A program made the translations under genes and the position numbers. The notes below the pieces were generated by a model that worked only from the letters and a program-made list of their open reading frames with translations, was not told where the DNA came from and did not search any database. Positions 3,865 to 59,610 of a stretch of 64,000 nt of DNA are shown one piece after another (position 1 is the stretch's first letter; the number at the start of each line of letters is the position of its first letter). Source of the DNA: an uncultured delta proteobacterium (lineage in GTDB: Bacteria > Desulfobacterota > Desulfobacteria > Desulfobacterales > SpSt-501); NCBI GenBank assembly GCA_963716325.1, contig CAVQTH010000023.1:65155-129154 (forward strand), written 5' to 3'.

Positions 3865-3891
3865 GCGTCGCGGGAGGTTGAGGAGAGCACC

Positions 3892-4449
3892 ATGATCGAT
3901 TCCATTTACCAGGACAGCAAGGAAAACATGGTGAAGGTGATCGCCGCCCTGAAGAAGGACCTGAAGCGGGTTCGAACCGGGCGGGCATCCCTGTCGCTGC
4001 TGGACGGGGTCAAGGTCGATTACTACGGCACGCTGACCCCCGTCAGCCAGCTGGCCACCCTGGCCGTGCCCGAAAGCCGCTTGATCACCATTCAGCCATG
4101 GGACACCACCGTCATCAAGGAAATCGAAAAAGCGATCCTGAAATCCGATCTCGGGCTGACCCCGTCCAATGACGGCAAAATCGTGCGGATTGCCATCCCG
4201 CCCTTGACCGAACAACGTCGCAAGGAGCTCGTCAAGGTCGTCCACAAGATCTGCGAGGAGTACAAGGTGTCGGTCCGCAACCTCCGGCGCGATGCCAATG
4301 AAATGGTCAAAGAGCTGAAGAAAGACAGCCGGATTTCAGAGGACGACGCCTTCAAGTCCCAGGAGAAGATTCAAAAGATGACCGACGAGCACATCAAGCT
4401 CGTCGACGAGTGCTACAAAGAAAAAGAGAAAGAGATCCTTGAGTTCTAA
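3892..4449 (+). CDS. frr: ribosome recycling factor
   Basis: Typical RRF length (185 aa) and sequence ([33 protein letters not shown]). Confidence 0.97.
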
Positions 4450-5182
4450 CCCGCCTTCCGCCGGCTCCGATGCGGGCGCGGCGACCGGGCTCCCGGCCCA
4501 CGTGGCCATCATCATGGACGGCAACGGACGATGGGCGAGACAGCGGCTGCTGTCCCGCATCCAGGGGCACGAGAAGGGGGCGGAAGCGGTGCGGACGACG
4601 GTGCGCACCTGCCGTGAGCGGGGCATTCCCTTCCTGACCCTCTACGCCTTTTCCACCGAAAACTGGCAGCGCCCGAAAACCGAGGTAAACGCCCTGATGG
4701 GGCTCTTGCGTCGTTTCCTGGAATCCGAGCTGAGGGAACTGCTCAAGAACGGAATCCGGCTGCATGTCATCGGCCGCCGGGATCGCCTCCCGGAGAATGT
4801 CCAGAAGGCGCTGGCCGCCGCTGTCAACGACACCCGGCAGAACTCCACCCTCCAGCTCACCCTGGCCTTGAGCTATGGCGGGCGCGACGAAATCACACGG
4901 GCCGCCCAGTCGCTGGCCGTCGAGGTGCAGGCGGGCCGCATGCGACCGGCGGACATCACCGAGGAGCTGCTGTCCGCCCGCCTGGACACGGCCGGCACCC
5001 CCGATCCGGACCTGCTGATCCGCACGGGCGGCGACATGCGGGTCAGCAATTTTCTGCTCTGGCAGCTCGCCTACACGGAGATATTCGTCACCCCCACGCT
5101 CTGGCCGGATTTCACCCCTGAGTTGTTTCAGCAGATTCTGAAAGACTTCCAGAGCCGGGAGCGGCGGTTCGGACGCGTCTGA
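4439..5182 (+). CDS. uppS: ditrans,polycis-undecaprenyl-diphosphate synthase
   Basis: cis-prenyltransferase motif [13 protein letters not shown], plus SYGGRDEI and LLIRTGG. TTG start overlaps the frr end. Confidence 0.94.
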
Positions 5183-5212
5183 ACCGCGGGCGCCCTAATA
5201 CGAAGGAATTCC

Positions 5213-6049
5213 ATGACAGCAGGAGCCAAGGGTCAAGCCCACCTCAAACGCTGGGTCACCGGTTTGGCCGCGCTGGCGGTGTTGATCGCCTGCGTGATCG
5301 CGGGAGGGGCGACCTTTTCGCTGCTGGCCGGCCTGGGCTGTTTCGCTTGCCAGTGGGAGTATGTCCGCCTCGTCCGACCGCCCGACACCCGACGTTTGAC
5401 GCAACCCCTGGTTCTGGCCGGTTACACCGCCGGTCTCGGCGTGATCCTCGCTGCGCATGCCGGCCGGGCGGATATCATCCTGGCCGTGCTGAGCCTCAAT
5501 GGGGTCGCCTGCGGGCTCTTGTCCCTGCAGCGGTTTCCATCCGATCGGACCGTGCTGGAGGCTGTCGCCCGACAGATTCAGGGGGTTTGCTACATCCCTT
5601 TGCCCCTGGCGCTCCTGATCCTGCTGCGGTCGGCTCCCGGCGGCACGGTCTGGATCTTTCTGTTGTGCGCCGTGATCTTCGCCGGCGACACCGCCGCGCT
5701 TTACGCCGGCACCCTCTGGGGCCGGCACAAGCTCTGCCCGGCCATCAGCCCGGGCAAGACCGTCGAGGGGTCGCTGGCCGGTCTGGCGGCCAATCTGGCG
5801 GTCGGCATGGCGGGAAAGGCCCTTTTTCTGCCGGAGGTCGGTTGGGCGGCCGCTCTGGCCTTTGCCGCAGCGGTGGGGCTGGCGGGACAGGTGGGGGACC
5901 TCTTCGAGTCCGAGTTGAAGCGGGCATCCAGCGTCAAGGATTCGGGGGGGCTCTTGCCCGGCCACGGCGGAGTTCTCGACCGCATCGATGCGCTGCTGTT
6001 TGCCGCTCCGGTGGCGTTCGTGTTCAGGATGGTTGTCGTCTGCGCTTGA
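5213..6049 (+). CDS. cdsA: phosphatidate cytidylyltransferase
   Basis: Multi-TM protein with the CDS signature ELKRASSVKDSGGLLPGHGGVLDRIDAL. Confidence 0.9.
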   Translation: MTAGAKGQAHLKRWVTGLAALAVLIACVIAGGATFSLLAGLGCFACQWEYVRLVRPPDTRRLTQPLVLAGYTAGLGVILAAHAGRADIILAVLSLNGVACGLLSLQRFPSDRTVLEAVARQIQGVCYIPLPLALLILLRSAPGGTVWIFLLCAVIFAGDTAALYAGTLWGRHKLCPAISPGKTVEGSLAGLAANLAVGMAGKALFLPEVGWAAALAFAAAVGLAGQVGDLFESELKRASSVKDSGGLLPGHGGVLDRIDALLFAAPVAFVFRMVVVCA

Positions 6050-6092
6050 ACGCTTTCGGCCTGGGGCGGGGGACGATTCGACGCTGAGGTTT

Positions 6093-7247
6093 ATGAAACG
6101 GCTTTCCATAGTGGGGTCCACCGGCTCCATCGGGCGCAATGCGCTCAGCATCGTCCGAATGTTTCCCGAACGCTTCAGCGTAAAGGCCCTGGCGGCCAAG
6201 CGCAACCTGACGCTTCTGTCAGAGCAGATCCGGGTCTTCCAACCGGAGGTCGCCGCCGTATTCGACGAGGCCGGCCGCCGGGAACTGAAAACGCTGCTGC
6301 CGGCCGACTGTCGCACCCGCATTTTGCAGGGCGAGGACGGGTATGCGGCGGCGGCGGCCTGGGAGTCGGCCGACCTGACGCTGACCGCGGTCGTCGGCGC
6401 CGCGGGCCTGCTGCCGACGCTTGCCGCGATCGACGCCGGAAAGACCATCGCTCTGGCCAACAAGGAAACCCTCGTCATGGCGGGCGCGGTGGTGACGCGG
6501 CGCGCGGCCGAGCGCGGGGTGTCCATCCTGCCGGTGGACAGCGAGCACAGCGCGATTTTCCAGTGCCTGAAGGGCCAGCGGCGGGAGGATGTCGACCGGA
6601 TCTTGCTGACCGCCTCCGGGGGCCCTTTTCTCAACCGGCCGGCCGGGGAATTTGCGGGCATCACGCCGGAGCAAGCCCTGCAGCACCCGAACTGGTCCAT
6701 GGGTGCGAAGATCACGATCGATTCCGCCACCCTGATGAACAAGGGTCTCGAGGTTCTCGAGGCCCAGTGGCTTTTCGGCGTTTCGCAGGAGAGGATTCGG
6801 GTCGTGGTGCACCCGCAGAGCGTCATTCATTCGATGGTCGCTTTCCGCGACGGCGCGGTGATCGCCCAACTGGGAATCCCCGACATGAAGGCCGCCATCG
6901 CCTACGCGCTGTCCTACCCCGAGCGGTTGGCCCTGGGGCAGCCGCTGCCCGATTTCTCGGGGGGCGCCGATCTGACGTTCAGGGAACCGGACCTCGAAAA
7001 ATTCCCGTGTCTCGCACTGGCCTTCGATGCCTGCCGGCAGGGGGGTACGCTGCCGGCCGTGCTCAATGCCGCCAACGAGGTGGCCGTCAACGCTTTTCTG
7101 GAGAAGCGGATCGGGTTCAACGACATACCGCGCATCGTCGGGCGGACGATGGCGGTCCACGCCGGCGTGGACGACCCTGCACTGGAAACCATCATCGCTG
7201 CCGATCTCTGGGCGCGTCAAAGCGCCGGCGAGTTGGTCGCGGGATGA
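6093..7247 (+). CDS. dxr: 1-deoxy-D-xylulose 5-phosphate reductoisomerase
   Basis: MKRLSIVGSTGSIGRNAL NADPH-binding N-terminus, LANKETLV, DSEHSAIFQC. The track ORF starts at 5988, but that start overlaps cdsA. The ATG at 6093 gives the canonical N-terminus. Confidence 0.95.
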   Translation: MKRLSIVGSTGSIGRNALSIVRMFPERFSVKALAAKRNLTLLSEQIRVFQPEVAAVFDEAGRRELKTLLPADCRTRILQGEDGYAAAAAWESADLTLTAVVGAAGLLPTLAAIDAGKTIALANKETLVMAGAVVTRRAAERGVSILPVDSEHSAIFQCLKGQRREDVDRILLTASGGPFLNRPAGEFAGITPEQALQHPNWSMGAKITIDSATLMNKGLEVLEAQWLFGVSQERIRVVVHPQSVIHSMVAFRDGAVIAQLGIPDMKAAIAYALSYPERLALGQPLPDFSGGADLTFREPDLEKFPCLALAFDACRQGGTLPAVLNAANEVAVNAFLEKRIGFNDIPRIVGRTMAVHAGVDDPALETIIAADLWARQSAGELVAG

Positions 7248-30263: not shown

Positions 30264-30356
30264 GGAGAGGTGGCCGAGTGGTTGAAGGCGCCGCTCTCGA
30301 AAAGCGGTGTGCTGCTTATAACGGCACCGTGGGTTCAAATCCCACCCTCTCCGCCA
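30264..30356 (+). tRNA. tRNA-Ser (anticodon CGA), CCA encoded
   Basis: Acceptor GGAGAGG/CCTCTCC. D-arm TGGCCGAGTGGTTGAAGGC. Anticodon loop CTCGAAA. Long variable arm. T-arm GTGGGTTCAAATCCCAC. Confidence 0.93.
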
Positions 30357-30456
30357 TCCATCCAGCCGTTGATCCGGCGAGCCGGCCGGGATGGCGGGCG
30401 GTGGTTTTACCGGGCTACGGTCGCTGAGAGCGTTTTTTAAAACATTGCTGATTTGC

Positions 30457-30550
30457 GGAGAGATGTCCGAGCTGGCCGAAGGAACACGACTGGAAATCGT
30501 GTGTGCTGCTAATAACGGCACCGTGGGTTCGAACCCCACTCTCTCCGCCA
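30457..30550 (+). tRNA. tRNA-Ser (anticodon GGA), CCA encoded; prophage integration target
   Basis: Acceptor GGAGAGA/TCTCTCC. Anticodon stem CACGA/TCGTG with loop CTGGAAA. Long variable arm. T-arm GTGGGTTCGAACCCCAC. Confidence 0.93.
30521..30550 (+). repeat. attL core (30-bp direct repeat, 3' end of tRNA-Ser GGA)
   Basis: CCGTGGGTTCGAACCCCACTCTCTCCGCCA is identical to 59581-59610. The flanking bases differ on both sides. Confidence 0.9.
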
Positions 30551-31434: not shown

Positions 31435-32454
31435 TCACTTCATCGCCCGAACGTTGTCCACTACCTTCTTCAAAACTCCCATGTCGTGCTCGGCGTAGTG
31501 CTTTTTCGTGATTGCTACGTTTGAATGGCGGAGAAGCGCGCTGATCTGGTTCATATCGACGCCTGCCTTTGACAGGGCCATCCCAAGCGAGTGCCTCCCC
31601 GCGTTGTTCAGCGGAAAGTATCCTACGCCCGCCTCTTTGCATGCCGCGTTCCATATATCGTAGATGTTCTTTTTGTAGACGCGCCCGGTGTCCGGATTGA
31701 TGAAAACGTATGGCGTGAGGTTTTGGCCGGCGGCCTCGATGGCGATCCGTGCTCCCTCTGTAAGCGGTATTGCCTCCTCTCGCGACTGCTTGACGATTTG
31801 CCAGACCTCACCGCCGTCCGCGCTCGGCGCGAACGTCCCCGCTATGACGATGCAATCACGCTGCACGTCAGCTTTCCGCAATGCACGGGCCTCCGAGACC
31901 CTACAGCCCGTTGCAAACAGGAAGGCATAGATCGGTCTATGCCTCACCGGGATCTTCTCAAGAACGGCCGCTTGTGTGTCGGCGTCGAGGTATTTGATCT
32001 TCTTCTGGTCGAGCTTGATGGGGATCAGCGCCGGCACTTGCGAAAGATACCCGTTTTCTCGTGCGTCCCGCAGGATCTCGAAAAGCAGCGCCTGGATGTT
32101 TTTTTTGTACTTGGGGGATTTAGGGATGGCGTTCAGAAACCGCTTGATCTTTTCATGCGACAGGTCCTCCCAGCCCCGCGGTTTGCCCTCGAACCATCCG
32201 CCTAGCAGCTTCTCGCCCTCGAGAATCAGACCGTTGGAATAGCGCAGCTCGCCGCCTTGCTTCTGGACGATGATCCCGGACTTCCATCCGACGCAGTCCT
32301 CCGACTTGCGCGCCTGGTAGCGCAGCTTGTCGATCGAGACGATGATCGCCGCGGGGTCGTTCGTGTATTTAACGAGATAGCAGTCCTTGTTGAAGGGATT
32401 GAGGCTGCGGGCGCGGCAGATGTGCATGAAGAAGATGACTTCCTGGTCGGTCAA
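31435..32454 (-). CDS. tyrosine integrase with an in-frame N-terminal Bet/RecT-like fragment (chimeric ORF, TTG start)
   Basis: The C-terminal two-thirds is a tyrosine recombinase (FATGCRVSEARAL, AGRHSLG, LLRHSNVAITKKHY). The N-terminal ~100 aa (LTDQEVIFFMHICRARSLNPFNKDCYLVKY...IIVSID) resembles the Bet/RecT annealase core. No ATG precedes it. Confidence 0.8.
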   Translation of the reverse strand: MTDQEVIFFMHICRARSLNPFNKDCYLVKYTNDPAAIIVSIDKLRYQARKSEDCVGWKSGIIVQKQGGELRYSNGLILEGEKLLGGWFEGKPRGWEDLSHEKIKRFLNAIPKSPKYKKNIQALLFEILRDARENGYLSQVPALIPIKLDQKKIKYLDADTQAAVLEKIPVRHRPIYAFLFATGCRVSEARALRKADVQRDCIVIAGTFAPSADGGEVWQIVKQSREEAIPLTEGARIAIEAAGQNLTPYVFINPDTGRVYKKNIYDIWNAACKEAGVGYFPLNNAGRHSLGMALSKAGVDMNQISALLRHSNVAITKKHYAEHDMGVLKKVVDNVRAMK

Positions 32455-34549: not shown

Positions 34550-35329
34550 ATGGGAGCGGAAAAGGAAGCCGAACACAGCCCGCAGGTTGAGGACGGCTAT
34601 ACCCGGATAGCCAATGAGCTGCTTGAGGCTTTGATTGATATCCGGATGCCGGGCGAGGTCCGCAGGGTATTCGACTACATTTTGCGTATGACCTACGGCT
34701 ACCATCGCAAAACGTTTGATACGACCCAGCGCAAAATTTCGCGGAGGCTGAACACAAGCCAGCAAAGGGTCTTTGAGGCCCTGCGCTGGCTGACCAGGGC
34801 GAATATGGTTGTCAACACGAAAAACCGTGTCGATCTGAGTCCTGACTGTCTGACTACATTGGGTATCCAGAAGCGATACCGGCTATGGAGTCCAACACGG
34901 AAAACCGTGTCGACACGAAAAAGCGTGTTAAGCCGAAACGTAAAACCGTGTTGTATCAACACGGAAAAGCGTGTCTTTACCTATAAAGAAAATTCTAAAG
35001 ATAATTTTAAAGAAAAGGGAATGGGCGCGTTAGACGCGCCTCCCTCGCTCGGTTCTGATAACAAAGAAGAAAATCCGCTTAAAAAACGCCGGCAGCTTCC
35101 GCCCGATTTCTCCCTCACCGATGAACTGAAAGTCTACGCCGAAGGGCAGGGCATCAACGGAAACAGGGTTGAATCCGTGTTCGCCCACTTCTGCGACCAC
35201 CACCGGGCGAAAGGGTCTGTCATGCTCGACTGGACGGCTGCCTGGCGGACCTGGGTCCGGAACGAAATGCGATTCAACCGCGGGAAAGTAGATAAAACGC
35301 GCCCTCCGGAGGACCTGCTGAAATGGTGA
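34550..35329 (+). CDS. phage replication initiator (lambda O-like N-terminal domain)
   Basis: EDGYTRIANELLEALI...RVFDYILRMTYGY is typical of the phage O-protein N-terminal domain. The gene contains iterons and an AT-rich tract internally. Confidence 0.75.
   Translation: MGAEKEAEHSPQVEDGYTRIANELLEALIDIRMPGEVRRVFDYILRMTYGYHRKTFDTTQRKISRRLNTSQQRVFEALRWLTRANMVVNTKNRVDLSPDCLTTLGIQKRYRLWSPTRKTVSTRKSVLSRNVKPCCINTEKRVFTYKENSKDNFKEKGMGALDAPPSLGSDNKEENPLKKRRQLPPDFSLTDELKVYAEGQGINGNRVESVFAHFCDHHRAKGSVMLDWTAAWRTWVRNEMRFNRGKVDKTRPPEDLLKW
34815..35015. repeat. putative phage origin: five palindromic iterons ACACG-N6-CGTGT plus an AT-rich tract
   Basis: Iterons at 34815-34830, 34895-34910, 34913-34928, 34937-34951 (degenerate) and 34959-34974. 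AT-rich tract at 34975-35015. Confidence 0.7.
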
Positions 35330-48060: not shown

Positions 48061-51000
48061 ATGCCCGTTCCGCGATCGGTATTCGAGCAGGTCAACGAGT
48101 TTGAGCAGCAGGGCTATCGGCCCTCCGAGATCCTGGACGGGCTCGAACGCAGCCCGCAGTATTCGGACCTTGGCCGGCAAGTGCGCTCCTTCAGGCTCAC
48201 TGGCCGGGGGGACGACGAGATCCTGGCCGGCCTGAAGGAGTCTTACGTCCCGGAGCCGCCGGGGCTGCTGGAGCGCGCCGGCGGAAAGGCTTCCGAGATC
48301 CTGGCCGGGACTCCAGGTGCGTCGGCCGCGGAAGCCGTGCAATCCGTCGCGAAATCGTTTCAGCCGGGCGAGGTCGGGCGCTCGCTGGTGGGGGCGGGGG
48401 AGACTACGGCATCCCTTTTGACGAGCCTCTACGGGCTTCCCTTGTCGGGGCTCGCGGGTCTGGGGGCGCTGCCCTTCGGCGGGTTCGAAGGCGCGCAGAG
48501 GGCGATCGAGGAAACCCAGAAATACACGATCTATCAGCCCCAGACCGAACGCGGCCGGCAGATCGCCGGGGTCGCCTTCTGGCCGTTTGAAAAGCTGCAT
48601 GAGCTGGGCGGGGCCGCCGGCGAGAAGACCCTGGAAGCTACCGGCAGCCCGGGCCTTGCAACCGCCGCGGCCACTGCAGTTGAAATGGCGCCTTTTGGTT
48701 TGTCTCCGGCGCTGAAAGCAGTCAGGGGACGGGGGGCGGCGCCGCTTCCCAAACAGGGAGCGTATGCCGGACCGGGCGCCGGCCCCTATTCGGAGCGCGC
48801 CTCGGTAGTTGAAATGTACTCCGCCAAGCCCAGGCCGGCCCCGGTTGTCGAGGCGGAGGTGGTGGGCGAAACAGTCAATCCGCGGATCCCGCCTCCTCCG
48901 CCCAGGCTGGAAGCCCCTCGGCCGGCGCTTCCCGAACCGCCTCCGGCGCCCCCGCCGCCGCTTGAGCAGATCAACCTGCCGGTGGTCTATTCGGGGAAAG
49001 CGACCCCCGCATCTGCAGGCCCCGCACAAACCGGATCGACTCCAGCGCCGTCCCTACTGCCGCAGCCCTACGCCAAGCCTCTTGAGCGCCGGGCTTATCC
49101 GTCGATTCCCGTCACCGTTCCGAGCAAGTCCCCCTGGGAGCTGGAGGGCCAAAACAAGTCCCCGCTCAGGCTCCGTCCCCGGGATGAGTTCTGGATGATC
49201 GAATCGACGCTGCGCGATCAACCCAGGCCTTCTGAGGCGACCGGGCCGCAGACCGTCGTTTTGACAGGCGGCCCGCCGGGCGCGGGCAAGTCCAGCGGGA
49301 CGAGAGAACTCGGGATTGACCGCCGCCGCTTCGTGGTGGCCGATGCCGACGAAATGAAAAGGAAATCCGGCTGGGATGCCGGAGAGGATGCCTCCGCCTT
49401 CCATGAGCAAAGCTCCACCGTCAACAAGAAGCTGCGCGACTTAGCCATCGATCGGGGATACAGCACGATCTACGACTCGCTCATGTCCAACTATGAGGAG
49501 GCGAAAAGTACAATCAACAAGGCAAGGGAGAAGGGTGCAAAGGTCAATTTGGTTTTTACAGACATCGATGCGGGCACCTCCCAGGCGCGCTCGATGATGC
49601 GAAACATGCTCATCGACCGGGAAAGCGGGGCGCCGCTGTCCATTCGCAAGATCCCCGTCGAAACCTCCATCAAGGGGCATAACAATTCGGCTGCCACTTT
49701 CCGGGCGCTGTTCGATGAATTCCGCGGGGATCCGCGGGTCGATATGGTGTTGATGGACAACAATGTGGATCTGGCCGCCCCCCGGCTGGTGTTCAAGCAG
49801 GAGGCCGGAAAGATCACGGTCGGCGACCAGGCGCTTTTTGACAGCTTTCTCGGCATGAAGTATCATAATGTCGGTAAAGGGGGTGAGATTCGCTATGAAA
49901 GATCCAACCCTGTTCGAGACCTTGAAGCGTTCGGAGGCCTCGAATCCCTCCAGCAGCGAGCCCTCGAAGCCGCCCGTGCCGTCGCCGCCAGAAGCGGGGG
50001 ACGACTTGTCGCGGATAGCGGAGGACTTGCTGGAGGAAAAGTTCCTCTCGGACCGCGAGCTGGCGAGAGCGGGAATCTTCAAGGACAACTGGCCGCCCGC
50101 CTACCGTCAGCGCCTGATAGACAGCCTCAAGCAGAGCTGACCGCTACGCCGGTCCCGCCTGCCCAGCCTGTAGCACCCCAGATTCAACCCCAAAAAGTTC
50201 GAAATCTCTACCCAGAGGGCATTCCGCCCGAGCGGGCGAAGCGCGCCTTGCGCCGTTCTGCAAGGATTAAGATCGATAAAACCAACACCCTGCGCGGCGC
50301 GATCAACAAGATGGGCGGCATCAACCCCGGCAACTTCAAAGGCGAGTTCAAAGAAGCTCCGGTCGCCGTCAAGTTCCTGCTGAAAAAATCAGGCGAGCAC
50401 CTGGACCTGGCCGAGGCCCGGCTGCGGGAAGAAGGCTGGCTGCGGCCGGACGAAAACCTGATCGATGTGCTGCGCGATCCCGCCAGCCTGCGCCGAAACA
50501 AGGTGGCGGCGGAAGGTGCCTCCAAGCAGGAGCGCTTCAAAACCGAGGTCGAAAAGCGATTCGAGCGCGAGATGGCCTGGGAGCCGGAAGAGCCCCCGCC
50601 CGGCGAATACGTCACCCTGGAAGCTGAGGATCTGCCGAAGGGCCGGAAGCTGACTCTGATCGACGACAGCGCAGCCGGCTGGGACGTTTATGAAGTGGTC
50701 GAGAAAGACCCCTTCGGCGTGGTCCTGCAGGACGGCAAAACGATCAACCTGTCCCCCGGCCAGCGCGTGCAGGTTCGCAAACAGGATATCGTAAAACCGG
50801 CAGCAGGGGAGGGTGTTGACGCTGCGACGGGTCTGTCTGATAATGAAGGCGTTTGGAACGAAATCCATGAACCCAAAGCAGCCTACCGACAACTCCAGCT
50901 CGACTTCTCGGCCCCCGCAAAACCCCGAGGGCCGGCCGGTACCGCGCAAGGTCATTCCCTTCCCGCGGACTTACAGGCCCGCGTCCGAACCGGAATGGCA

Positions 51001-54000
51001 ACTACCGGATCCCTCCGAGCAGGCTCCCTATACGCCAGAGGACCCGCCGAAGCCGCCAGCCTCTTAGCCCACATCCGCAAAAGCCCGCAGGAAAATCTTT
51101 ACCTGGTCGCGGTCGATGAGGCCGGGAAAATCCTCGAGATCCACCGGTACTCCAAGGGAACCAAGAGCGCTGCCTACGCGCATCCGGTCGAAATGATCGG
51201 GTCGGTGATGAACGTCCCCGGCACCAAGCGGGTCTTCGTCGCCCACAACCACCCCGGCGGCAGCGCGCTCGCCTCCCGCGAAGACATTGCGCTTCTTGAG
51301 CATATCGAAGCTGGCCTAAAACTGGCGGATATCGAGACCATCCCGATCATCATCGCCGGGACCAAGTGGAAAACCTTCTCACCGGTAGGCGATGAAGTGG
51401 GCATCCCGCCGGCCGTGCGAAAGGTTGATCTCCCGATTAAAGAGCGGGTTTTTGCCATGCAGCGCCCCGGCGAGCGGGCGAGTTTCCCCCAGGAAGCCGT
51501 GAGGATCAAGAACGAGCTCTACGGCCGCGATTCCGAAGGCTTCATGCTGCTCGACAACAAACTGCGTGTGTCGGGCTTCCTGGAGCACAAGCCGGGCCGG
51601 CCGATGGCGGAGGTGGCGGCCGACCTGATCCGATCCGCCGAGAAAACAAACGCGGCCGGCTACCTGTTTTTCAGCAACGAGCCGATCAAGGGCGGCGGGA
51701 GCCGGGAGCGGTTTCTTACCCAGATGAAGACCGCAACTGCCGAGAACCTCCAGCTGTTCGACGTGTTCGTAAAAGGCGAATCCGCCCCTTTGAACGCCGC
51801 GGTCAAGGAATCCTCGGCGGCCGGATACAAAAACCTGAAAAGCGGCGGAACGCTTTACTCGGGCATCCCCATCCCGGCGATCATCGACTTTCTCACCAGC
51901 ACGAAGGTCAAAGGGTTTTTCGACCCTTTCCACAACTTGCCGCAGAAGGAAGCCTACCTGGAGTCGCGCTACAAGAGCTTCGGCGGGATCGCCCGGGTAG
52001 AAAAGATCGTCGAGCGGGTGTTCGAGCGCACCAAGGGCCTGGATGAGCAGACTCGGGCTGATCTTTTCCGCTACTTGGACGGCCAGGCGGTGCAGCTGCC
52101 GCCGGAGGTTCAGCGGCTGGTCGATACCCTGAAAATAGTCAACAACACGGTCGGCAAGATGCTGGTCAATCGCGGGCTGCTCTCGCCGGAGGCCTTCGAG
52201 GCGCACAAGAACCAGTACGTCCGCTACCTGTACCTCAAGCACGTTCTGGGCGACAAGTTCAACATCACCGGCCGGGGCGGCCGGATGGATCTCACCTACC
52301 TCAAGCACCGCAAGGATCTGACCGACGAGCAGCGGAAGGCGATCGGCTTGGTCGAGGACGTTTCGGTCGCCGAGCCCTACGGTCTTTCCAAAAGTCTTTC
52401 CGACATCGTGAAGCACGACTTTTACGAGCAGATTGCCGGAAATTCAGAGTGGGTCTGGGAGCCTTCCGTGATTGAGGCAGGCGAGATCCGACGCTTCCCG
52501 GACATAGCCTCGGCCTACCGGATGGTAGCAAGGCATGCCCGGGCGGGAGATCCCGTGCAGGTGCGGCGTTTGCCGAACGGCCAGTTCTTCCTTGAGCGCA
52601 CAGCCGGCGGGGAGCCCGTGCGCCACAAGATCGGCCTGGCCAGGGCGCGGGCAGAGCTTGAAGCCCAGCGCCGGGTCGCGCGCGAATCCCAGGCGCCGGA
52701 GGTCCTGGACCGGCTGCAGCGCCTGGAGAAGGCGGTTTCCGACGCCGAGGCCCAGGCCGGCAAGCTGACCGCGGATTTCGTGGAAATGCCCGACTCCCCG
52801 AATTACGGGCCGCTCGCCGGCGCTTATGTCCGCAAAGAGATCGCCCGGGATGTGGTGCCGTTCATTGGCCGGATCCCTGACAAGGTACATGCCTCGGCCT
52901 CGCTTAACACTGTGATTTCGGCCTTCGAGGCCGGAATGACGGCCTTTAAGGTCTCCAAGACCGCGCTCAACCTACCGACCGCCGCGAGAAACATCTATTC
53001 CAACTTCGTGCAGCTCAACATGAGCGGGATCCCCTGGTACGAGATCCCCGGCTACATGGCCAAGGCCGCGAACGAAATGAGGACCAAGGGCCGGCTCTAC
53101 GGGGAAGCCTTCCGGAACGGGCTCACGAAAACCAACTGGACCGAGGCCGAGATCGGCGAGGTGCTTTCCGCCTTCAAGCAGATGCAGGGCGGGGGGCTTG
53201 AGACGGTCGTGTCGAAGCTCCGGGACGTGGCCAAATACTACGGCAAGATCGACGACTTTTTTAAACTCGCCAAGTTCATCGAGCAGCGCGAGTCGGGCGC
53301 GTCGGTCGGAAAAGCGATCCGCGAGGCCCAGAAGTGGGGGATGGATTACTCCATCGCCGACCCCTCGGTCCGCATGGCCCGGCGGTTTGCAGCCCCTTTT
53401 TTGTCCTACCCGTACAAGGTGACCCCGCTCATCGCCGAGGCGATCCAGAAACGCCCCTGGGTGATCGCAAAATACCTGGCGCTGCCCTACGCCATGTTTG
53501 AGGCCGCGAAATATGCCCTGGATCTGACCGAGGAGGATTTCAAGCGGCTGAAAAAGCTGCTGCCCGAGTACGTCCGCAAGAATCCAACTTATGCGGTCCT
53601 GCCCTGGAAGAGCCCGGAGGGCAACCTGCAATGGGTCAACCTGGGGTACTATTTCCCCTGGTCAACGCATGTTGAACTCGCCCGGGGGGTCGCCTCCGGC
53701 AAGCCGGAAAGCATGGTGCAGCTGATCGGCAACCCCTATCTGGATATGCTCTGGAGCCTCAAGAGCGGCAAGGGGGACGATCCGCCGCGGGACTCCTTCA
53801 CCGGCCGGGAAATCTACAACCGGCTGGACAGCCCGGCCGAGAAGGCTCTCAAGCTCTCAGAATGGCTCTACAACAAGTGGGCGCCGACCATGCTGACCCG
53901 CGAGGGCGCTGCCGGCTACACGGCCCGGGCGGTCACCGGCGAGAAGGACCGCTATGGGCGCAAGGTCACCCCGGAGCAGGCGGTCGGCCGCTGGATGGGG

Positions 54001-54171
54001 GTTAATATCGTATCGCCAACCCCTATGCAGGCGGCGGTCGAGAAGCGGGCGAAGATTTCGGATCTCAAGGCGGCGCTTTACCGGGCGCTGCGGGATCCTA
54101 ATCTGAAGCCGGCGGAAAAGGCCGAGCTGATGAATCGCTTTGGCGCGGAACTCAAGGAAGTGGGGGAATGA
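48061..54171 (+). CDS. 2036-aa phage polyvalent (virion/ejection-type) protein with Zeta-toxin-like P-loop kinase and RadC/JAB domains
   Basis: P-loop VVLTGGPPGAGKSSG plus VVADADEMKR...FHEQSS...VNLVFTDID (about 49250-49800). JAB/MPN+ motif VAHNHPGGSALASREDIALLEHI (about 51060-51380). Pro-rich linkers. Large C-terminal helical region. Confidence 0.8.
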   Translation: MPVPRSVFEQVNEFEQQGYRPSEILDGLERSPQYSDLGRQVRSFRLTGRGDDEILAGLKESYVPEPPGLLERAGGKASEILAGTPGASAAEAVQSVAKSFQPGEVGRSLVGAGETTASLLTSLYGLPLSGLAGLGALPFGGFEGAQRAIEETQKYTIYQPQTERGRQIAGVAFWPFEKLHELGGAAGEKTLEATGSPGLATAAATAVEMAPFGLSPALKAVRGRGAAPLPKQGAYAGPGAGPYSERASVVEMYSAKPRPAPVVEAEVVGETVNPRIPPPPPRLEAPRPALPEPPPAPPPPLEQINLPVVYSGKATPASAGPAQTGSTPAPSLLPQPYAKPLERRAYPSIPVTVPSKSPWELEGQNKSPLRLRPRDEFWMIESTLRDQPRPSEATGPQTVVLTGGPPGAGKSSGTRELGIDRRRFVVADADEMKRKSGWDAGEDASAFHEQSSTVNKKLRDLAIDRGYSTIYDSLMSNYEEAKSTINKAREKGAKVNLVFTDIDAGTSQARSMMRNMLIDRESGAPLSIRKIPVETSIKGHNNSAATFRALFDEFRGDPRVDMVLMDNNVDLAAPRLVFKQEAGKITVGDQALFDSFLGMKYHNVGKGGEIRYERSNPVRDLEAFGGLESLQQRALEAARAVAARSGGRLVADSGGLAGGKVPLGPRAGESGNLQGQLAARLPSAPDRQPQAELTATPVPPAQPVAPQIQPQKVRNLYPEGIPPERAKRALRRSARIKIDKTNTLRGAINKMGGINPGNFKGEFKEAPVAVKFLLKKSGEHLDLAEARLREEGWLRPDENLIDVLRDPASLRRNKVAAEGASKQERFKTEVEKRFEREMAWEPEEPPPGEYVTLEAEDLPKGRKLTLIDDSAAGWDVYEVVEKDPFGVVLQDGKTINLSPGQRVQVRKQDIVKPAAGEGVDAATGLSDNEGVWNEIHEPKAAYRQLQLDFSAPAKPRGPAGTAQGHSLPADLQARVRTGMATTGSLRAGSLYARGPAEAASLLAHIRKSPQENLYLVAVDEAGKILEIHRYSKGTKSAAYAHPVEMIGSVMNVPGTKRVFVAHNHPGGSALASREDIALLEHIEAGLKLADIETIPIIIAGTKWKTFSPVGDEVGIPPAVRKVDLPIKERVFAMQRPGERASFPQEAVRIKNELYGRDSEGFMLLDNKLRVSGFLEHKPGRPMAEVAADLIRSAEKTNAAGYLFFSNEPIKGGGSRERFLTQMKTATAENLQLFDVFVKGESAPLNAAVKESSAAGYKNLKSGGTLYSGIPIPAIIDFLTSTKVKGFFDPFHNLPQKEAYLESRYKSFGGIARVEKIVERVFERTKGLDEQTRADLFRYLDGQAVQLPPEVQRLVDTLKIVNNTVGKMLVNRGLLSPEAFEAHKNQYVRYLYLKHVLGDKFNITGRGGRMDLTYLKHRKDLTDEQRKAIGLVEDVSVAEPYGLSKSLSDIVKHDFYEQIAGNSEWVWEPSVIEAGEIRRFPDIASAYRMVARHARAGDPVQVRRLPNGQFFLERTAGGEPVRHKIGLARARAELEAQRRVARESQAPEVLDRLQRLEKAVSDAEAQAGKLTADFVEMPDSPNYGPLAGAYVRKEIARDVVPFIGRIPDKVHASASLNTVISAFEAGMTAFKVSKTALNLPTAARNIYSNFVQLNMSGIPWYEIPGYMAKAANEMRTKGRLYGEAFRNGLTKTNWTEAEIGEVLSAFKQMQGGGLETVVSKLRDVAKYYGKIDDFFKLAKFIEQRESGASVGKAIREAQKWGMDYSIADPSVRMARRFAAPFLSYPYKVTPLIAEAIQKRPWVIAKYLALPYAMFEAAKYALDLTEEDFKRLKKLLPEYVRKNPTYAVLPWKSPEGNLQWVNLGYYFPWSTHVELARGVASGKPESMVQLIGNPYLDMLWSLKSGKGDDPPRDSFTGREIYNRLDSPAEKALKLSEWLYNKWAPTMLTREGAAGYTARAVTGEKDRYGRKVTPEQAVGRWMGVNIVSPTPMQAAVEKRAKISDLKAALYRALRDPNLKPAEKAELMNRFGAELKEVGE

Positions 54172-55023: not shown

Positions 55024-56679
55024 ATGAAAAACACCCCTTTTCACCTGCTCCAATGGCAGTACGACCTCCTGGGCGGCCAGGAGATCGAGACCCTCCGCCG
55101 CGGCAACCTGGACGGGGCAGTCTTGACCGCGCAGGACGGCCAGGTCGTCATCCCGGAGGCCTCCGGCGGCGGCCGGGTGCACCACTTCCGCGGGGCCTGG
55201 CTCACGACCGTTGAATTCTCCTGGGAGGGCTATTGGGCCGCTCCGAAAGGAACCCCGGTTAACTATTTCGAGGGCGGCAGCGCGGTCAATTCCGGCAACC
55301 AGACGATCGTCATCCTGGGGACCGACCCCGGGAACGGGACCGCTCTCCAGGTCTATTATTACTTCGGCAGCGGTCAGACCTTCGCCCCGAAAACCCCGAT
55401 CGAAGCCTATCCCGCCTTTCAGCCCTGCCGGCAGGGGGCCAAGCAGAAATTTTCTTCCGCTCCGGACGCCGACCAGTGGATCGCGCTCGTCATGCTGGAG
55501 GCCCGCGCTCGCTGGGACGACTTCAAGCGCTGCTACGGCTGGAGTATCATCGAGAGCCTGAAAAAGTTTGCGGAGTCGGGCGACCAGGCCATCATTGACG
55601 ACTTCAACCGCGACCCCTCCCGGGTGCGTGACGAGGGGCACTGGACCTATTTCGGCACGGACGCCGCCAGTACACTCACACCGTCGATCACCGACAAGGG
55701 AACGCTCCGGATCGACTCGAACATCGCCGAGGGCGGGTTTGGCTATTTCGGCTGGGGGCGGCCGATCTATGTACCGCCGGCGGCCGGAAAAATCCTGATG
55801 CTCTTCAAGGGGCAGGGCACAGGCCGCGCCTGGCAGCTTGCCCTCAACAGCGATCCGGCCGGAGCCTACGAACTGGACAAGATATTCTATTACGGGGTCG
55901 TGGACAATTCGGTCGACTGGCGGCAGCTGGAGGCGTCTTTCGAGCAGTTCACCAAGATCAAGAACCTGATCTGGGACGGGGACCGGATCGACTGGAACAT
56001 CTGGGGGGTGACGCCGGAGCAGCGCTATTACATGGGGGAGCTGGTCGGGGCGACGGCGGGCGAGCTCAGCCGGCACCAGGCGGAATGGATCGAGGGCGGC
56101 TTCAACCACGGCCAATGTTTGCGGGTGGACATGCAGCACATCAACACCCGCTTTGCGAACACGACGAGCCTGCGCGTCTCGACGACTCCTCCGATCGACA
56201 CCCGTACCGTGGAGGGGATCTCCTTCGGCGTTCGCTGGATCTTCGACGCATTCGCCGTTCACCAGCTCTGGGTTGAGATCGTGGACGGGCAGTTTTCGCC
56301 GGAGGAATTGGGCGGAGCTTCGGCCTGGTGGTACATTGACGGCTCCGAGCTCGCCTACTGGAAGCGGATCAATTTGAAATGGACCGATCTCAAGTGGGGT
56401 TGGGAAAACGTCCCGAATCTGAACCCGATCAACCAGATCCGGTTTAACTTTGTTCTCAAGACCAATTTCGGAGGCATGAGCTCGGTCCGGCAAGAAACCA
56501 GCACGGCTCTTATGGATGATTTTAAATGGATCCCGTCCGGGCAGAGTGCGATGGTCAGGGAAACCTATGCCGACTTTCTGGCTGGCGGAGGGAGCCGGTA
56601 TCTGAGCAACGCGCAGATCAACATCGCTCCTGGTGAGTCGCTAAGGAGGCGGAGCATAGGGAGCATTATAGTTTGGTAA
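55024..56679 (+). CDS. phage tail/host-recognition protein (hypothetical)
   Basis: 551 aa, Trp/Gly-rich and beta-type in composition. Last gene of the late operon. Confidence 0.4.
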   Translation: MKNTPFHLLQWQYDLLGGQEIETLRRGNLDGAVLTAQDGQVVIPEASGGGRVHHFRGAWLTTVEFSWEGYWAAPKGTPVNYFEGGSAVNSGNQTIVILGTDPGNGTALQVYYYFGSGQTFAPKTPIEAYPAFQPCRQGAKQKFSSAPDADQWIALVMLEARARWDDFKRCYGWSIIESLKKFAESGDQAIIDDFNRDPSRVRDEGHWTYFGTDAASTLTPSITDKGTLRIDSNIAEGGFGYFGWGRPIYVPPAAGKILMLFKGQGTGRAWQLALNSDPAGAYELDKIFYYGVVDNSVDWRQLEASFEQFTKIKNLIWDGDRIDWNIWGVTPEQRYYMGELVGATAGELSRHQAEWIEGGFNHGQCLRVDMQHINTRFANTTSLRVSTTPPIDTRTVEGISFGVRWIFDAFAVHQLWVEIVDGQFSPEELGGASAWWYIDGSELAYWKRINLKWTDLKWGWENVPNLNPINQIRFNFVLKTNFGGMSSVRQETSTALMDDFKWIPSGQSAMVRETYADFLAGGGSRYLSNAQINIAPGESLRRRSIGSIIVW

Positions 56680-56735
56680 TCGGGGATTGACATAAAGTGC
56701 TTCCCTCTGAAACTGTATCAGTTAAAATAATTTTT

Positions 56736-57230
56736 TTAAGGCAGTATCCCTAAAATCTTCCACTTATCCTTCCACTGCTCCAACCTTCGGTTATTTATCG
56801 AATGGTGAGTCGACTCCTGCGACACTGGCCTCTTTCCGAGATTTTTTTCCAAATATGCAGCATGGCATTCATAAATATTGTTTTTTACCCACCACTCAGG
56901 AACTATATAGAAATCTGGTGGGTTCTTCCCTCTGGATAAATCGACAAATATCCAAAAAGATGTTTCATCCCTCTTTATTGAGCATTTTTTTCCATGGTTT
57001 ATTGTGCTTTGCCAGTCGCCTGCCGTTTTGGTTTTCACCTGAATATGGACGGTGCGATTTTGGTTTATATCACAAGCAAGAATGTCAATTCTTGGCATAT
57101 TGCCGGAAAAGGTAACTGCATAAGCGCCCCTGCGATTCAGTTCGGCAGCGACGTAATATTCTCCGGCCCTTGCTGTCTGCTGGTTTCTTCCCCCTTTGGC
57201 CATAATTACTTCTTTAAATGGTTGTGTCAT
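56736..57230 (-). CDS. DUF4365-like PD-(D/E)XK nuclease-fold protein (prophage cargo)
   Basis: GEYYVAAEL...PRIDILACD...VHIQVKTK gives an E / D / (Q)xK arrangement. Low-GC gene. Start lies 3 nt after the GNAT stop. Alternative ATG at 57203. Confidence 0.55.
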   Translation of the reverse strand: MTQPFKEVIMAKGGRNQQTARAGEYYVAAELNRRGAYAVTFSGNMPRIDILACDINQNRTVHIQVKTKTAGDWQSTINHGKKCSIKRDETSFWIFVDLSRGKNPPDFYIVPEWWVKNNIYECHAAYLEKNLGKRPVSQESTHHSINNRRLEQWKDKWKILGILP

Positions 57231-57233
57231 TGA

Positions 57234-57812
57234 TTATCTCAGGATTGAATCAAATCTCATAATCGGCCTTGTTGGCGAACGACGAGCCACTTCCGAAAAC
57301 CCCGCCGACTCAAATGCTTTCGGAATTCCAGTCCAGGCGAAAGCCGGCGCAATCATCTTGTCGCCCTTAGGCTCAACCGGGTAGGCCTCAATAATGCGGC
57401 CGCCTTGGTCACGTACATGATCGACGGCAGCGCGAAGCAACTGGGTGGAAACGCCTTTTTTCCGATACGCTCGGTGAACGAAGAGGCAGGAAACCGACCA
57501 ACAGGGTTGATCATCGACAGGTTTTAGGATCCGTGAGCGGTTCAAGGCAGGGTAATGATCGCGGGGGGCCACCGCACACCAGCCGACCGGTTGACCCTCA
57601 AAATAACCAAGCAGGCCCGGAACGGCCCCCGATTCAACGATAGCCTTCATCGCTTTCCGGTTAGCCTCGCCCTTCTGGCACTCGAACTGCTTGCGCGGCA
57701 ACCGCCAGAGCATGCACCAGCAACCGCCGCAGGCGCCGTTCTTGCCGAAAAGCAGCTCAAAATCCAGCCAGCGGGCTTTCTTCAGCGGATGGCATTCGAG
57801 ATGAATGTCCAA
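57234..57812 (-). CDS. GNAT-family N-acetyltransferase (prophage cargo)
   Basis: Acetyl-CoA site VHRAYRKKGVSTQLL. Cys-rich GACGGCWCMLWR N-terminal motif. TTG start. Confidence 0.75.
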   Translation of the reverse strand: MDIHLECHPLKKARWLDFELLFGKNGACGGCWCMLWRLPRKQFECQKGEANRKAMKAIVESGAVPGLLGYFEGQPVGWCAVAPRDHYPALNRSRILKPVDDQPCWSVSCLFVHRAYRKKGVSTQLLRAAVDHVRDQGGRIIEAYPVEPKGDKMIAPAFAWTGIPKAFESAGFSEVARRSPTRPIMRFDSILR

Positions 57813-58068
57813 TATGCCTTGGATCCTGTCGTTAGAATCTCAATGGGCAACCGATAACTTTTTGATGCTGTCATAGAAATGTTGAACTTTCAAGGAAATC
57901 AACGATCGGCTAAATGCAGGGGTGGGGCTGTTGGTGGGAGCGGATATAATTCTTAACGCCACTATGCGCTGGGTGATAGGTTTTTTTAAGAAGAATTTTT
58001 GCGAATCAAAGCGCGGAAAACACCTACTTGATTAGCTGTCAGTACCAATCGATCAGCGCTAACCATGG

Positions 58069-59055
58069 CTATTTGAAAAATTCGGATACGTATTTGAGTG
58101 CAGTAAAAACGATGATAGCGCTTAGCATCCACTTGATTGCTTTTGCAGGAACATACTTCTGGCAACGCGCACCCATATACATCCCGGCGATTCCCCCCAG
58201 ACCAAACAACGACCCCAGCAGCCAGTCCGGTGCGATCGACAAGCTCGGATAAAAAGGTGCGATCGCCTGATAGAAGATGACGCCAGCAACCGATGTCACA
58301 AAGGTTCCCATCAGAGCGGCACCCGCAACTGTGTATACGGGAAGCCCGAAAAATGACACAAAAAATGGCGCTATTATGGCACCACCACCAATTCCGTAAA
58401 TACCTCCCACTATACCGACAATGAAGCTAAGGGAGAAAACGCCGACAACGGGCACATCAAACTGCTCACCGTAAAATTCATACTTAACTCGCCGCAGAGT
58501 GAATTGAATTATTTTGACAGCCGGGAGGGTTTCACCACCCTTGATTGCGGATTTTTCCGCTTTGCGTCTGTGTTCACGAACAAGTTCCTGGAAGCGCTTT
58601 TCGCTTGAAGCCTTGTCCATGCCGGGAAGAGGTTTTCGGATCAGGTCCCTCAGCATACGAACTCCAATATACAGAAGGACGATTGCCGCGAATAATTTGA
58701 AGTTCTTTGGGTCTGGCAGGTACCCAATTCGAACAACAGCCCCAATAAAAACACCGGGGAGTGTCCCAATGATGACGGCCCATGTGAGCGGCCAGACCAT
58801 ACGGCCTTCTTTGAAGTAGCGGTAGACGCCGCTTGGAATGGCCACAACGTTAAATAACTGATTTGTTGCGCTTACTGAAGGGTTTGTGTAACCGAGAAAG
58901 GACATTTGAAATGGCAAGAGCAGGAAAGCGCCAGAAACCCCTCCCATGGATGTGAAGAAAGATACAAAAAAGGCAACCGCAACGGGAACTATTGGGCTGG
59001 TCTCAACTCCTGATACCGAAAACAGCATGTATTTCCATGCCTCTTTAAATTTCAC
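58069..59055 (-). CDS. TauE/SafE-family sulfite/anion exporter (prophage-border cargo)
   Basis: About eight TM segments with duplicated GxxGGxxG-type motifs (GIVGGIYGIGGGAI). GTG start; alternative ATG at 59028. Confidence 0.8.
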   Translation of the reverse strand: MKFKEAWKYMLFSVSGVETSPIVPVAVAFFVSFFTSMGGVSGAFLLLPFQMSFLGYTNPSVSATNQLFNVVAIPSGVYRYFKEGRMVWPLTWAVIIGTLPGVFIGAVVRIGYLPDPKNFKLFAAIVLLYIGVRMLRDLIRKPLPGMDKASSEKRFQELVREHRRKAEKSAIKGGETLPAVKIIQFTLRRVKYEFYGEQFDVPVVGVFSLSFIVGIVGGIYGIGGGAIIAPFFVSFFGLPVYTVAGAALMGTFVTSVAGVIFYQAIAPFYPSLSIAPDWLLGSLFGLGGIAGMYMGARCQKYVPAKAIKWMLSAIIVFTALKYVSEFFK

Positions 59056-59342
59056 CTGTTATTTTCTGTGATTTAAAGTAATTCTAAGAAATAAAAATAA
59101 AAAAGTCAACATAATATTAGAGGGTTATTCTACCTATAAAGTTTTAGACTGATTTCGGCAAAGTTTTTGATTTAACCAGATTTTGGAATGTGTTTGAGTG
59201 GCGATAACAGGGGCGGGGTAGGATCGAGGTATTCAATACCATCACTAAGCAGTTTCCATGCCCAGGGGCTATCCGCTAAACTTCTTGTTTTTTGGACAGT
59301 TTTAGGATAGAAATTCGGGGAGTGGTGGCGCTGAAATTAAAC

Positions 59343-59397
59343 AAAAAAATGGCGGAAGTGCATGGGAATCCTTCCCACGCACTTAAGCCGCCGCCAT
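59343..59397 (-). terminator. strong minus-strand intrinsic terminator just inside attR
   Basis: On the minus strand: ATGGCGG..AAGTGCGTGGG-loop-CCCATGCACTT-CCGCCAT followed by T7. No minus-strand gene lies upstream of it. Confidence 0.55.
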
Positions 59398-59438
59398 AGA
59401 CTCAACAGTGATGTTAAAAAACAAATTCACCAGGGGTC

Positions 59439-59463
59439 GCCGCGGTTATGCGGCCATTTTTTT
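59439..59463 (+). terminator. weak plus-strand terminator-like hairpin
   Basis: GCCGC-GGTTAT-GCGGC, then CA and T7. Confidence 0.35.
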
Positions 59464-59470
59464 GTGGTCT

Positions 59471-59498
59471 TTGACTGTACCCGTTTCTGTGCTAATAT
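59471..59498 (+). promoter_or_regulatory. outward-facing sigma-70-like promoter (TTGACT-16-TAATAT) at the prophage right end
   Basis: TTGACT at 59471-59476 and TAATAT at 59493-59498. Points across attR toward dnaX. Confidence 0.45.
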
Positions 59499-59509
59499 CC
59501 AAACGATCG

Positions 59510-59529
59510 TGCAAATGGAGTGCAAATGG
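59510..59529 (+). repeat. two phased TGCAAATGG 9-mers (candidate arm-type sites, attR arm)
   Basis: TGCAAATGG at 59510-59518 and 59521-59529, 11-bp phasing. Same motif and orientation as the attL-arm copies. Confidence 0.5.
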
Positions 59530-59580
59530 CTGAGCGGGTTTCAAAAAATAAATATAAATTACGGCAGGTTACTGAGGGGG

Positions 59581-59610
59581 CCGTGGGTTCGAACCCCACT
59601 CTCTCCGCCA
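59581..59610 (+). repeat. attR core (30-bp direct repeat; tRNA-Ser 3' remnant)
   Basis: Identical to 30521-30550. Confidence 0.9.

Follow-up and report, generated by a model that had tools for sequence, protein, structure and literature searches.

The closest described counterparts of the locus considered here are the conversion slots of phage P22, in which gtrABC lies between the tailspike gene and attP, and of phage Sf6, in which oac is the slot cargo. Two of the gene types at this locus also have described relatives. In the TacAT, AtaRT, and KacAT toxin-antitoxin (TA) systems, the gene for a ribbon-helix-helix (RHH)/DUF1778 antitoxin lies directly upstream of the gene for a GNAT toxin that acetylates aminoacyl-tRNA, and the PD-(D/E)xK homing endonuclease I-Ssp6803I has its gene inside a tRNA gene's group I intron. 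I-Ssp6803I is encoded in cyanobacteria (PMC3384342), and SPARDA DREN is a PD-(D/E)xK defense effector that resembles it (bioRxiv 10.1101/2025.04.08.647717). The window analyzed here, i.e. the whole 64,000-nucleotide (nt) stretch at positions 65,155 to 129,154 of contig CAVQTH010000023.1 (assembly GCA_963716325.1, an uncultured delta proteobacterium), contains a P22-like prophage with a 2.9-kb terminal segment in which three minus-strand open reading frames (ORFs) lie between the last late gene (end 56679) and attR. They code for a small nuclease-fold protein, a GNAT N-acetyltransferase, and a TauE/SafE membrane transporter. An initial annotation had put forward the acetyltransferase and the nuclease as a possible new defense or TA architecture. 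On balance, the comparisons described below favor another reading, in which the segment is mosaic cargo with no GNAT-nuclease pair and with a solitary nuclease of the defense type. Nothing in it is categorically new: this is ordinary prophage cargo, in which the nuclease represents a new, unannotated family and the GNAT and TauE/SafE proteins belong to large known families.

Layout and composition of the cargo slot

The element that houses these genes is a genuine P22-like prophage, ~29 kb long and integrated in tRNA-Ser(GGA). Its portal protein is of the P22 type (P22_portal, 5.8e-109), its integrase gene (Phage_integrase, 2.4e-20) adjoins the attL formed by the tRNA gene, accessory genes occupy the interval between the last tail gene and attR, and further genes code for a Rep-O-like protein, a capsid protein, an adaptor protein, a holin, and an amidase. 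The initial annotation placed the three cargo genes inside the att repeats and after a late operon that ends at 56679, where gene orientation switches to the minus strand; the ORF coordinates and the exact 30-nt cores at both ends agree with this. When the 22-nt att core was searched for with up to 3 mismatches, only attL, attR, and the neighboring tRNA-Ser(CGA) matched (0 matches expected by chance), and dnaX starts at 59717, directly past attR. The attachment sites and the genes of the slot are the following:

30457-30550, plus strand: tRNA-Ser(GGA) gene (ARAGORN, Rfam)
30521-30550, plus strand: attL core, 30 nt, the 3' end of tRNA-Ser(GGA) (exact repeat, pattern search)
55024-56679, plus strand: last late-operon gene, 551 amino acids, tail-fiber/spike-like (ORF list; no Pfam family above threshold)
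56736-57203, ORF to 57230, minus strand: stand-alone PD-(D/E)xK nuclease-fold gene, 155 amino acids from M10 (ORF list, alignment, AlphaFold2 (AF2), Foldseek)
57234-57812, minus strand: GNAT N-acetyltransferase gene, 192 amino acids, TTG start (Pfam, alignment, AF2, Foldseek)
58069-59028, ORF to 59055 (328 amino acids), minus strand: TauE/SafE membrane transporter gene, 319 amino acids from the probable start (Pfam, homologs)
59581-59610, plus strand: attR core, identical over its 30 nt to the 3' end of tRNA-Ser (repeat and pattern search)

The arrangement shares with the P22-like conversion slot a P22-type portal and cargo of foreign composition that lies between the last tail gene and an att site, at the end opposite the integrase and oriented against the late operon. 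It differs in that the window cargo consists of a TauE/SafE protein, a cytoplasmic GNAT, and a small nuclease rather than O-antigen modification genes, and in that no cargo gene has close relatives in sequenced phages: a set of 50,697 phage records contains essentially none of the three proteins. The expectation of accessory cargo at this prophage end was borne out by the att-bounded position, the foreign composition, and the host-type genes, and the slot represents a moron or lysogenic-conversion site between the last tail gene and attR, opposite the integrase end.

The composition of the slot varies from gene to gene. GC (guanine plus cytosine) content is 0.60-0.64 on either side and 0.40-0.58 across ~56500-59500; by feature, the nuclease gene has a value of 0.424, the GNAT gene 0.568, and the TauE/SafE gene 0.485, compared with 0.40-0.44 in the spacers, 0.609 in the phage, and 0.61-0.63 in the host flanks. 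The initial annotation was right that the segment is AT-richer, with GC falling from ~0.61, but the fall is uneven across the three genes. The homology boundaries are separate as well, as relatives of the GNAT gene match 57254-57937 only and those of the TauE/SafE gene 58064-59127 only. That the genes do not co-occur elsewhere (see below), fall into separate homology blocks, and include a 14-point GC difference between the GNAT and nuclease genes shows the slot to consist of three independent cassettes. Three unrelated cellular genes would each have been gained separately, with their own composition and homology boundaries, and the slot would be a clean example of a P22-like conversion slot filled by cellular genes. 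Two other organizations were considered and rejected: an integron-type cassette array, as no attC-like imperfect inverted repeats are present, and a tandem second element, as no degenerate third att copy (up to 3 mismatches) lies between phage and cargo.

The GNAT and nuclease genes compared across genomes

The initial annotation measured 3 nt between the GNAT stop (57234) and the nuclease ORF start (57230). These ORF coordinates are correct, but the nuclease homologs are ~154 amino acids long and begin at the equivalent of M10 (MAKGGRNQQ), and the residues ahead of M10 are unconserved even in a 92%-identical relative; translation therefore probably begins at 57203, which leaves ~30 nt between the two genes. 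A further 56 nt follow the nuclease gene. As the spacer is this short and no terminator is predicted between the two genes, their co-transcription in this prophage is likely.

Elsewhere, however, the two families were never found together. Of 289 genome loci found with nuclease relatives, 80 were fetched, and contig look-ups added 4. A tblastn search with the window GNAT and TauE/SafE proteins found neither within 6 kb of these 84 loci, a GNAT-family hidden Markov model (HMM) found no member among 1866 ORFs within 3.5 kb of the 80, and in the reverse direction the nuclease HMM found none in 10 GNAT loci or 4 TauE/SafE loci. A metagenome scan for close relatives of the pair returned one locus only, at 43% identity. 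Co-occurrence in other genomes had been set beforehand as the test of the pair, and with 0 instances in either direction the idea of a new defense or TA architecture did not hold up. A comparison with PADLOC-DB v2, also called for in the initial annotation, gave 0 families at E <= 1 for the nuclease, GNAT, and TauE/SafE proteins and hence no sign of a defense system.

The nearest relatives of the GNAT gene tell the same story at the level of DNA. They are 89% identical in protein and 86.5% in DNA over 57254-57937, which takes in the gene and 125 nt upstream, and this homology breaks ~20 nt before the GNAT stop codon. Downstream, these loci carry a gene of the animal-heme-peroxidase family and not the nuclease, and the last residues of the window GNAT deviate from the family consensus. 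The other GNAT relatives are singletons that lie beside a PALP enzyme, a methyltransferase, or CreD. By these comparisons the GNAT-nuclease adjacency appears to be a chance juxtaposition: a nuclease cassette would have inserted where the GNAT gene ends (3'), without any system being formed by the neighbors. The locus does resemble GNAT-toxin TA modules in having a GNAT-fold protein encoded on a mobile element beside a small gene. In contrast to those modules, it has no conserved antitoxin ORF at 57813-58068, where the GNAT homology stops at 57937, and the adjacent gene codes for a nuclease whose family was never found together with this GNAT family. With a pairing that is confined to this prophage and would stem from mosaic acquisition, the acetyltransferase-nuclease architecture is not worth pursuit.

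A stand-alone PD-(D/E)xK nuclease family

The 164-amino-acid ORF codes for a predicted PD-(D/E)xK nuclease-fold protein. The catalytic signature of the superfamily is present, with E in helix 1, D in strand 2, and QxK (here Q64-V-K66) in strand 3, and the conservation anticipated in the initial annotation was found: in 28 aligned sequences (50-89% identical), E24, D49, and K66 (numbering of the 164-amino-acid ORF) never vary, and conservation at Q64 is at least 90%. Throughout the family, Q stands for the acidic residue of the (D/E)xK motif. A C-terminal module contributes H142, H143, and W153, which are invariant in the same 28 sequences. The AF2 model (predicted local distance difference test (pLDDT) 87, predicted template modeling score (pTM) 0.80) starts with a helix, continues with successive strands, and adds another helix and strand; together with Foldseek it points to a restriction-endonuclease-like core fold of the alpha-beta-beta-beta-alpha-beta type. 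With probability 1.0, Foldseek recovered I-Ssp6803I, SPARDA DREN (DUF4365), Hjc, and EcoRV, and small viral PD(D/E)XK proteins were matched as well.

Profile searches gave much weaker signals. The window nuclease has no Pfam match at E <= 1, DUF4365 (PF14280) included; it matches YraN (NCBIfam NF009154) at 16.2 bits (E 0.0079) against a cut-off of 109 bits, and phrog_29029 at 1e-6. One family member (P0316) scores 17.3 bits (E 0.005) against Pfam DUF4365, below the cut-off of 24.3, and a PDB sequence search with the nuclease-family profile returned nothing significant. The description of the protein as a DUF4365-like nuclease is therefore accurate at the level of the fold and of the conserved E...D...QxK pattern, but not as DUF4365 membership by score.

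Two known nucleases illustrate how far the likeness goes. The best Foldseek match, I-Ssp6803I (PDB 2ost, E 1e-4), is likewise a protein of ~150 amino acids with a single-domain restriction-endonuclease-like core; it differs in that identity is 8-11% and the template modeling (TM) score ~0.5, and in that the window gene stands by itself, having neither an intron around it nor a conserved target locus. SPARDA DREN/DUF4365 shares the PD-(D/E)xK domain recovered by Foldseek (9vx6, 9jsz, 9qcc), whereas the window nuclease lacks an APAZ fusion or Argonaute neighbor and has its own C-terminal extension with the invariant HH pair. No Argonaute or APAZ protein was found in the window or among the summarized neighbor families.

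A profile search that covered 1.84 billion representatives, with clusters at 50% identity, assigned 2656 clusters to the nuclease family at E <= 1e-3 and 870 at E <= 1e-10. Nearly all members are ~150 amino acids long and single-domain; fusions are rare, one being with HNH and DUF7669. The family is uncharacterized, without a Pfam or PADLOC model, inside a very well-known superfamily. Its spread is patchy, reaching across bacterial phyla and into one archaeal metagenome-assembled genome (MAG) at 50-70% identity, and it is absent from the 50,697 phage records and from an IMG/VR pattern scan. In 43 of 77 loci the flanks exceed the nuclease gene in GC content by more than 5 points, whereas the gene exceeds its flanks by that much in 0 (median for the gene relative to its flanks -6.1), and this AT-richness relative to the flanks is a signature of horizontal transfer. 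The 92%-identical relative (P0001) lies on a 934-bp contig with a 110-residue gene upstream.

Genes on the same strand were taken as neighbors of the nuclease relatives. No neighbor is conserved, the largest neighbor cluster being present in 5 of the 80 loci, and restriction-modification (R-M) and other defense-type genes recur. The R-M neighbors include Mrr at four loci (directly upstream of the nuclease gene in L022 and L023), Type II/IIG methyltransferases, an MvaI/BcnI restriction endonuclease, and a Type III restriction endonuclease whose gene overlaps the nuclease relative by 4 nt (L002-L004). Other neighbors of the defense type are HmaA (1.8e-178), DpdF, a DRT reverse transcriptase, and the PADLOC candidates PDC-S11, PDC-S14, and PDC-S02.

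Two of these neighborhoods are worth describing individually. In an Actinomycetota MAG (L001, positions 3782-6358, on a contig shared with L025), the nuclease gene lies between PDC-S11 (3e-109) and PDC-S14 (3e-109) and after a Type_ISP_C fragment. In four mycobacterial loci (L043, L044, L045, and L049), genes for an LmuB-like SMC ATPase, a 134-amino-acid ORF product, and the nuclease form a three-gene operon; in L045 (3099-6474) the ATPase matches PADLOC LmuB at 1e-22 and successive genes overlap by 4 nt. This mycobacterial operon may be a Lamassu-like system with the nuclease as its effector.

Possible roles of the nuclease

The recurrence of R-M and defense genes as immediate neighbors is the reason for reading the nuclease as a defense gene. 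Expressed from the lysogen, it would cut incoming foreign DNA as a solitary metal-dependent endonuclease, and the outcome would be superinfection exclusion or defense. Self-DNA would be spared through substrate specificity, i.e. recognition of modification, sequence, or structure, and not through a partner protein. This proposal of expression from the lysogen, attack on incoming DNA, and sparing of self by specificity is offered tentatively, with a chance of being right somewhat short of even. A bolder version holds that the stand-alone family of ~155 amino acids is a previously unrecognized single-gene anti-phage or anti-plasmid nuclease, borne by prophages for superinfection exclusion and recruited as the effector of larger systems in some lineages; candidates for such systems are the operon with the LmuB-like ATPase in mycobacteria and the loci beside Mrr, HmaA, or Type III R-M genes. 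That version is somewhat unlikely. An R-M system with a distal methyltransferase was rejected, as no DNA methyltransferase was found among the scanned prophage ORFs.

Several observations weigh against a solitary defense nuclease in a mosaic slot. The defense role is guilt by association, drawn from raw neighbor counts, and no PADLOC model matches the protein. Housekeeping neighbors are common (GluRS at four loci, IF-2 at two, PheT, ribonucleotide reductase, and 3-hydroxyacyl-CoA dehydrogenase), and the closest relatives, at ~70% identity, have no recognizable defense neighbors. With Q at the acidic position of the (D/E)xK motif throughout the family, nuclease activity is presumed. Finally, the GNAT and nuclease genes are probably co-transcribed, and a locally evolved interplay between them is conceivable. 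Even so, a solo PD-(D/E)xK family that is mid-sized, unannotated, and recurrent in R-M and defense islands makes a reasonable candidate for a defense screen.

A different view is that the nuclease is a selfish, free-standing gene of the homing-endonuclease kind, which would spread by cutting nuclease-free alleles and being copied into them, without helping phage or host. The top structural match is itself a PD-(D/E)xK homing endonuclease, and the patchy phylogenetic spread at 50-70% identity, the lack of a conserved neighbor, a gene that is AT-richer than its flanks throughout, the frequent position directly after housekeeping genes (GluRS, IF-2, PheT), and a window junction that falls at the extreme 3' end of the GNAT gene and alters its last residues would all suit such an element. 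Against this, the ORF lies outside any intron or intein, its neighbors differ in nearly all of the 80 loci, and on the far flank the window is unlike the nearest GNAT loci. No pair of empty and filled alleles with homology on both flanks was found, although empty sites were not searched for systematically. The Foldseek match to I-Ssp6803I is at the level of the fold, and Hjc and DREN match equally well; the recurrent R-M and defense neighbors also fit a gene of defense islands better. Homing is accordingly judged unlikely.

The nuclease might alternatively be a structure-specific enzyme of the Hjc/YraN kind, a resolvase of Holliday junctions or D-loops, serving recombination or repair in phage replication or in the host. 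Like YraN (UPF0102) and Hjc, it is small and carries a GE...(I/L)D...xVK signature, its fold matches archaeal Hjc, and the weak YraN match (NF009154, E 0.008) points the same way, as does the Joint Genome Institute (JGI) label "Holliday junction resolvase-like predicted endonuclease" on several family members. An enzyme of this kind would need no immunity partner. A report that YraN acts on D-loops as a nuclease during natural transformation (bioRxiv 10.1101/2024.02.06.579203) counts in favor of such a role. However, a score of 16 bits is far from the YraN cut-off of 109, Q occupies the acidic position, and the gene stands outside the early/replication module, on the opposite strand and in an AT-rich moron slot. 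The family, moreover, is absent from the 50,697 phage genomes, and its sporadic, AT-richer, transfer-like distribution in R-M islands is unlike that of a core repair gene. A resolvase or repair role is very unlikely on this evidence.

Last, a two-gene module of the defense or TA-like type, in which acetylation would control or complement the nuclease, has in its favor the shared strand, the spacer of 3-30 nt with no predicted terminator, and the prophage moron slot, and is extremely improbable in view of the missing co-occurrence, the GNAT homology that stops at the 3' end of the gene in relatives without a nuclease, the 14-point GC gap, the ubiquity of the GNAT family as a chromosomal singleton in varied contexts, its small-molecule-type structural neighbors (see below), the lack of a conserved small antitoxin ORF inherited with the GNAT gene, and the lack of PADLOC matches.

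The GNAT and TauE/SafE genes

The remaining two cargo genes are unusual as cargo and individually ordinary as cellular genes. The assignment of the 192-amino-acid ORF as a GNAT was borne out by its match to Acetyltransf_1 (2.2e-11, 44.5 bits, gathering score 20.7) and by a model that Foldseek aligned with hundreds of GNAT structures. Its family has more than 7255 members; identity is 64-89% for the best 120, whose source lineages are Desulfobacterota, Acidobacteriota, Latescibacterota, and Gammaproteobacteria. The Cys-rich motif GACGGCWCMLWR, which had been singled out as unusual, turned out to be typical of the family, being kept in 22 of 22 aligned members (64-80% identical, several phyla). 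These sequences share five invariant cysteines, C28, C31, C33, C79, and C109, and a nearly invariant sixth, C104. The AF2 model shows a normal fold with low confidence exactly at the CxxCxC motif, and a metal or Fe-S site at the conserved cysteines is possible. Among solved structures, small-molecule acetyltransferases of the ArsN/phosphinothricin type come closest, and no toxin of the TacT/AtaT type is among the 50 best structural matches listed; the protein probably acts on small molecules. A PDB profile search for solved structures among the GNAT sequence relatives gave nothing significant, and a literature search on the Cys motif found no papers. This very large family with six conserved cysteines is without a characterized or solved member. 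The stretch upstream of the gene appears in the comparison with its relatives:

57813-57937, minus strand: leader and promoter region inherited with the GNAT gene (blastn homology 57254-57937)

The 328-amino-acid ORF had been called a TauE/SafE exporter, a call upheld by a near full-length match to TauE/SafE (PF01925; 2.3e-39, 135.9 bits, profile positions 3-236 of 237). As most homologs are 319 amino acids long, 59028 is the probable start. There are at least 8000 homologs; identity is 73-97% for the best 120 listed, of which many are Desulfobacterales proteins. Relatives align to 58064-59127 only, at 83-86% identity and in unrelated chromosomal contexts; the gene is one commonly found on Desulfobacterales chromosomes and was captured here by itself. 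Its description as unusual phage cargo is apt, such genes being rare in sequenced phages. As a sulfur-anion exporter, the protein could act as an auxiliary metabolic gene product in a host of the Desulfobacterota type. A candidate promoter lies upstream of the gene:

59081-59109, minus strand: sigma-70-like promoter TTGACT-17-TAGAAT, 10/12 matches (consensus scan only)

Other features of the prophage

The spacer between the TauE/SafE gene and attR contains one further element:

59341-59465, no strand assigned: structured element with the perfect 13-nt inverted repeat ACAAAAAAATGGC / GCCATTTTTTTGT (folding, repeat search)

This element is 125 nt long, with a minimum free energy of -53.4 kcal/mol (z -5.5 against shuffled sequences) and T-runs on both strands. 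Located just inside attR, it is likely to be either a bidirectional terminator or a small RNA. Searches of the cargo region against Rfam gave sub-threshold noise only and no family for 59341-59465.

At the opposite end, the genes for tRNA-Ser CGA and GGA (30264-30550) lie 194 nt apart, and the second alone serves as the att site. Related prophages were sought for their slot content, and the search yielded one IMG/VR contig only, which ends before the slot; this viral contig shares the N-terminal 277 residues of the 551-amino-acid late protein. The late operon also codes for a polyvalent protein of 2036 amino acids (48061-54171, plus strand) that has a Zeta-toxin-like kinase domain at residues 392-555 and a RadC-like JAB domain at 996-1102. 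The integrase ORF (31435-32454, minus strand) combines a RecT match over residues 2-93 with the Phage_integrase domain at 162-324, and is either an odd fusion or an ORF spanning two genes. Five copies of the 19-nt iteron CAACACGGAAAACCGTGTC lie at 34813-34975, within the Rep-O-like gene (34550-35329), and this cluster is probably the phage replication origin.

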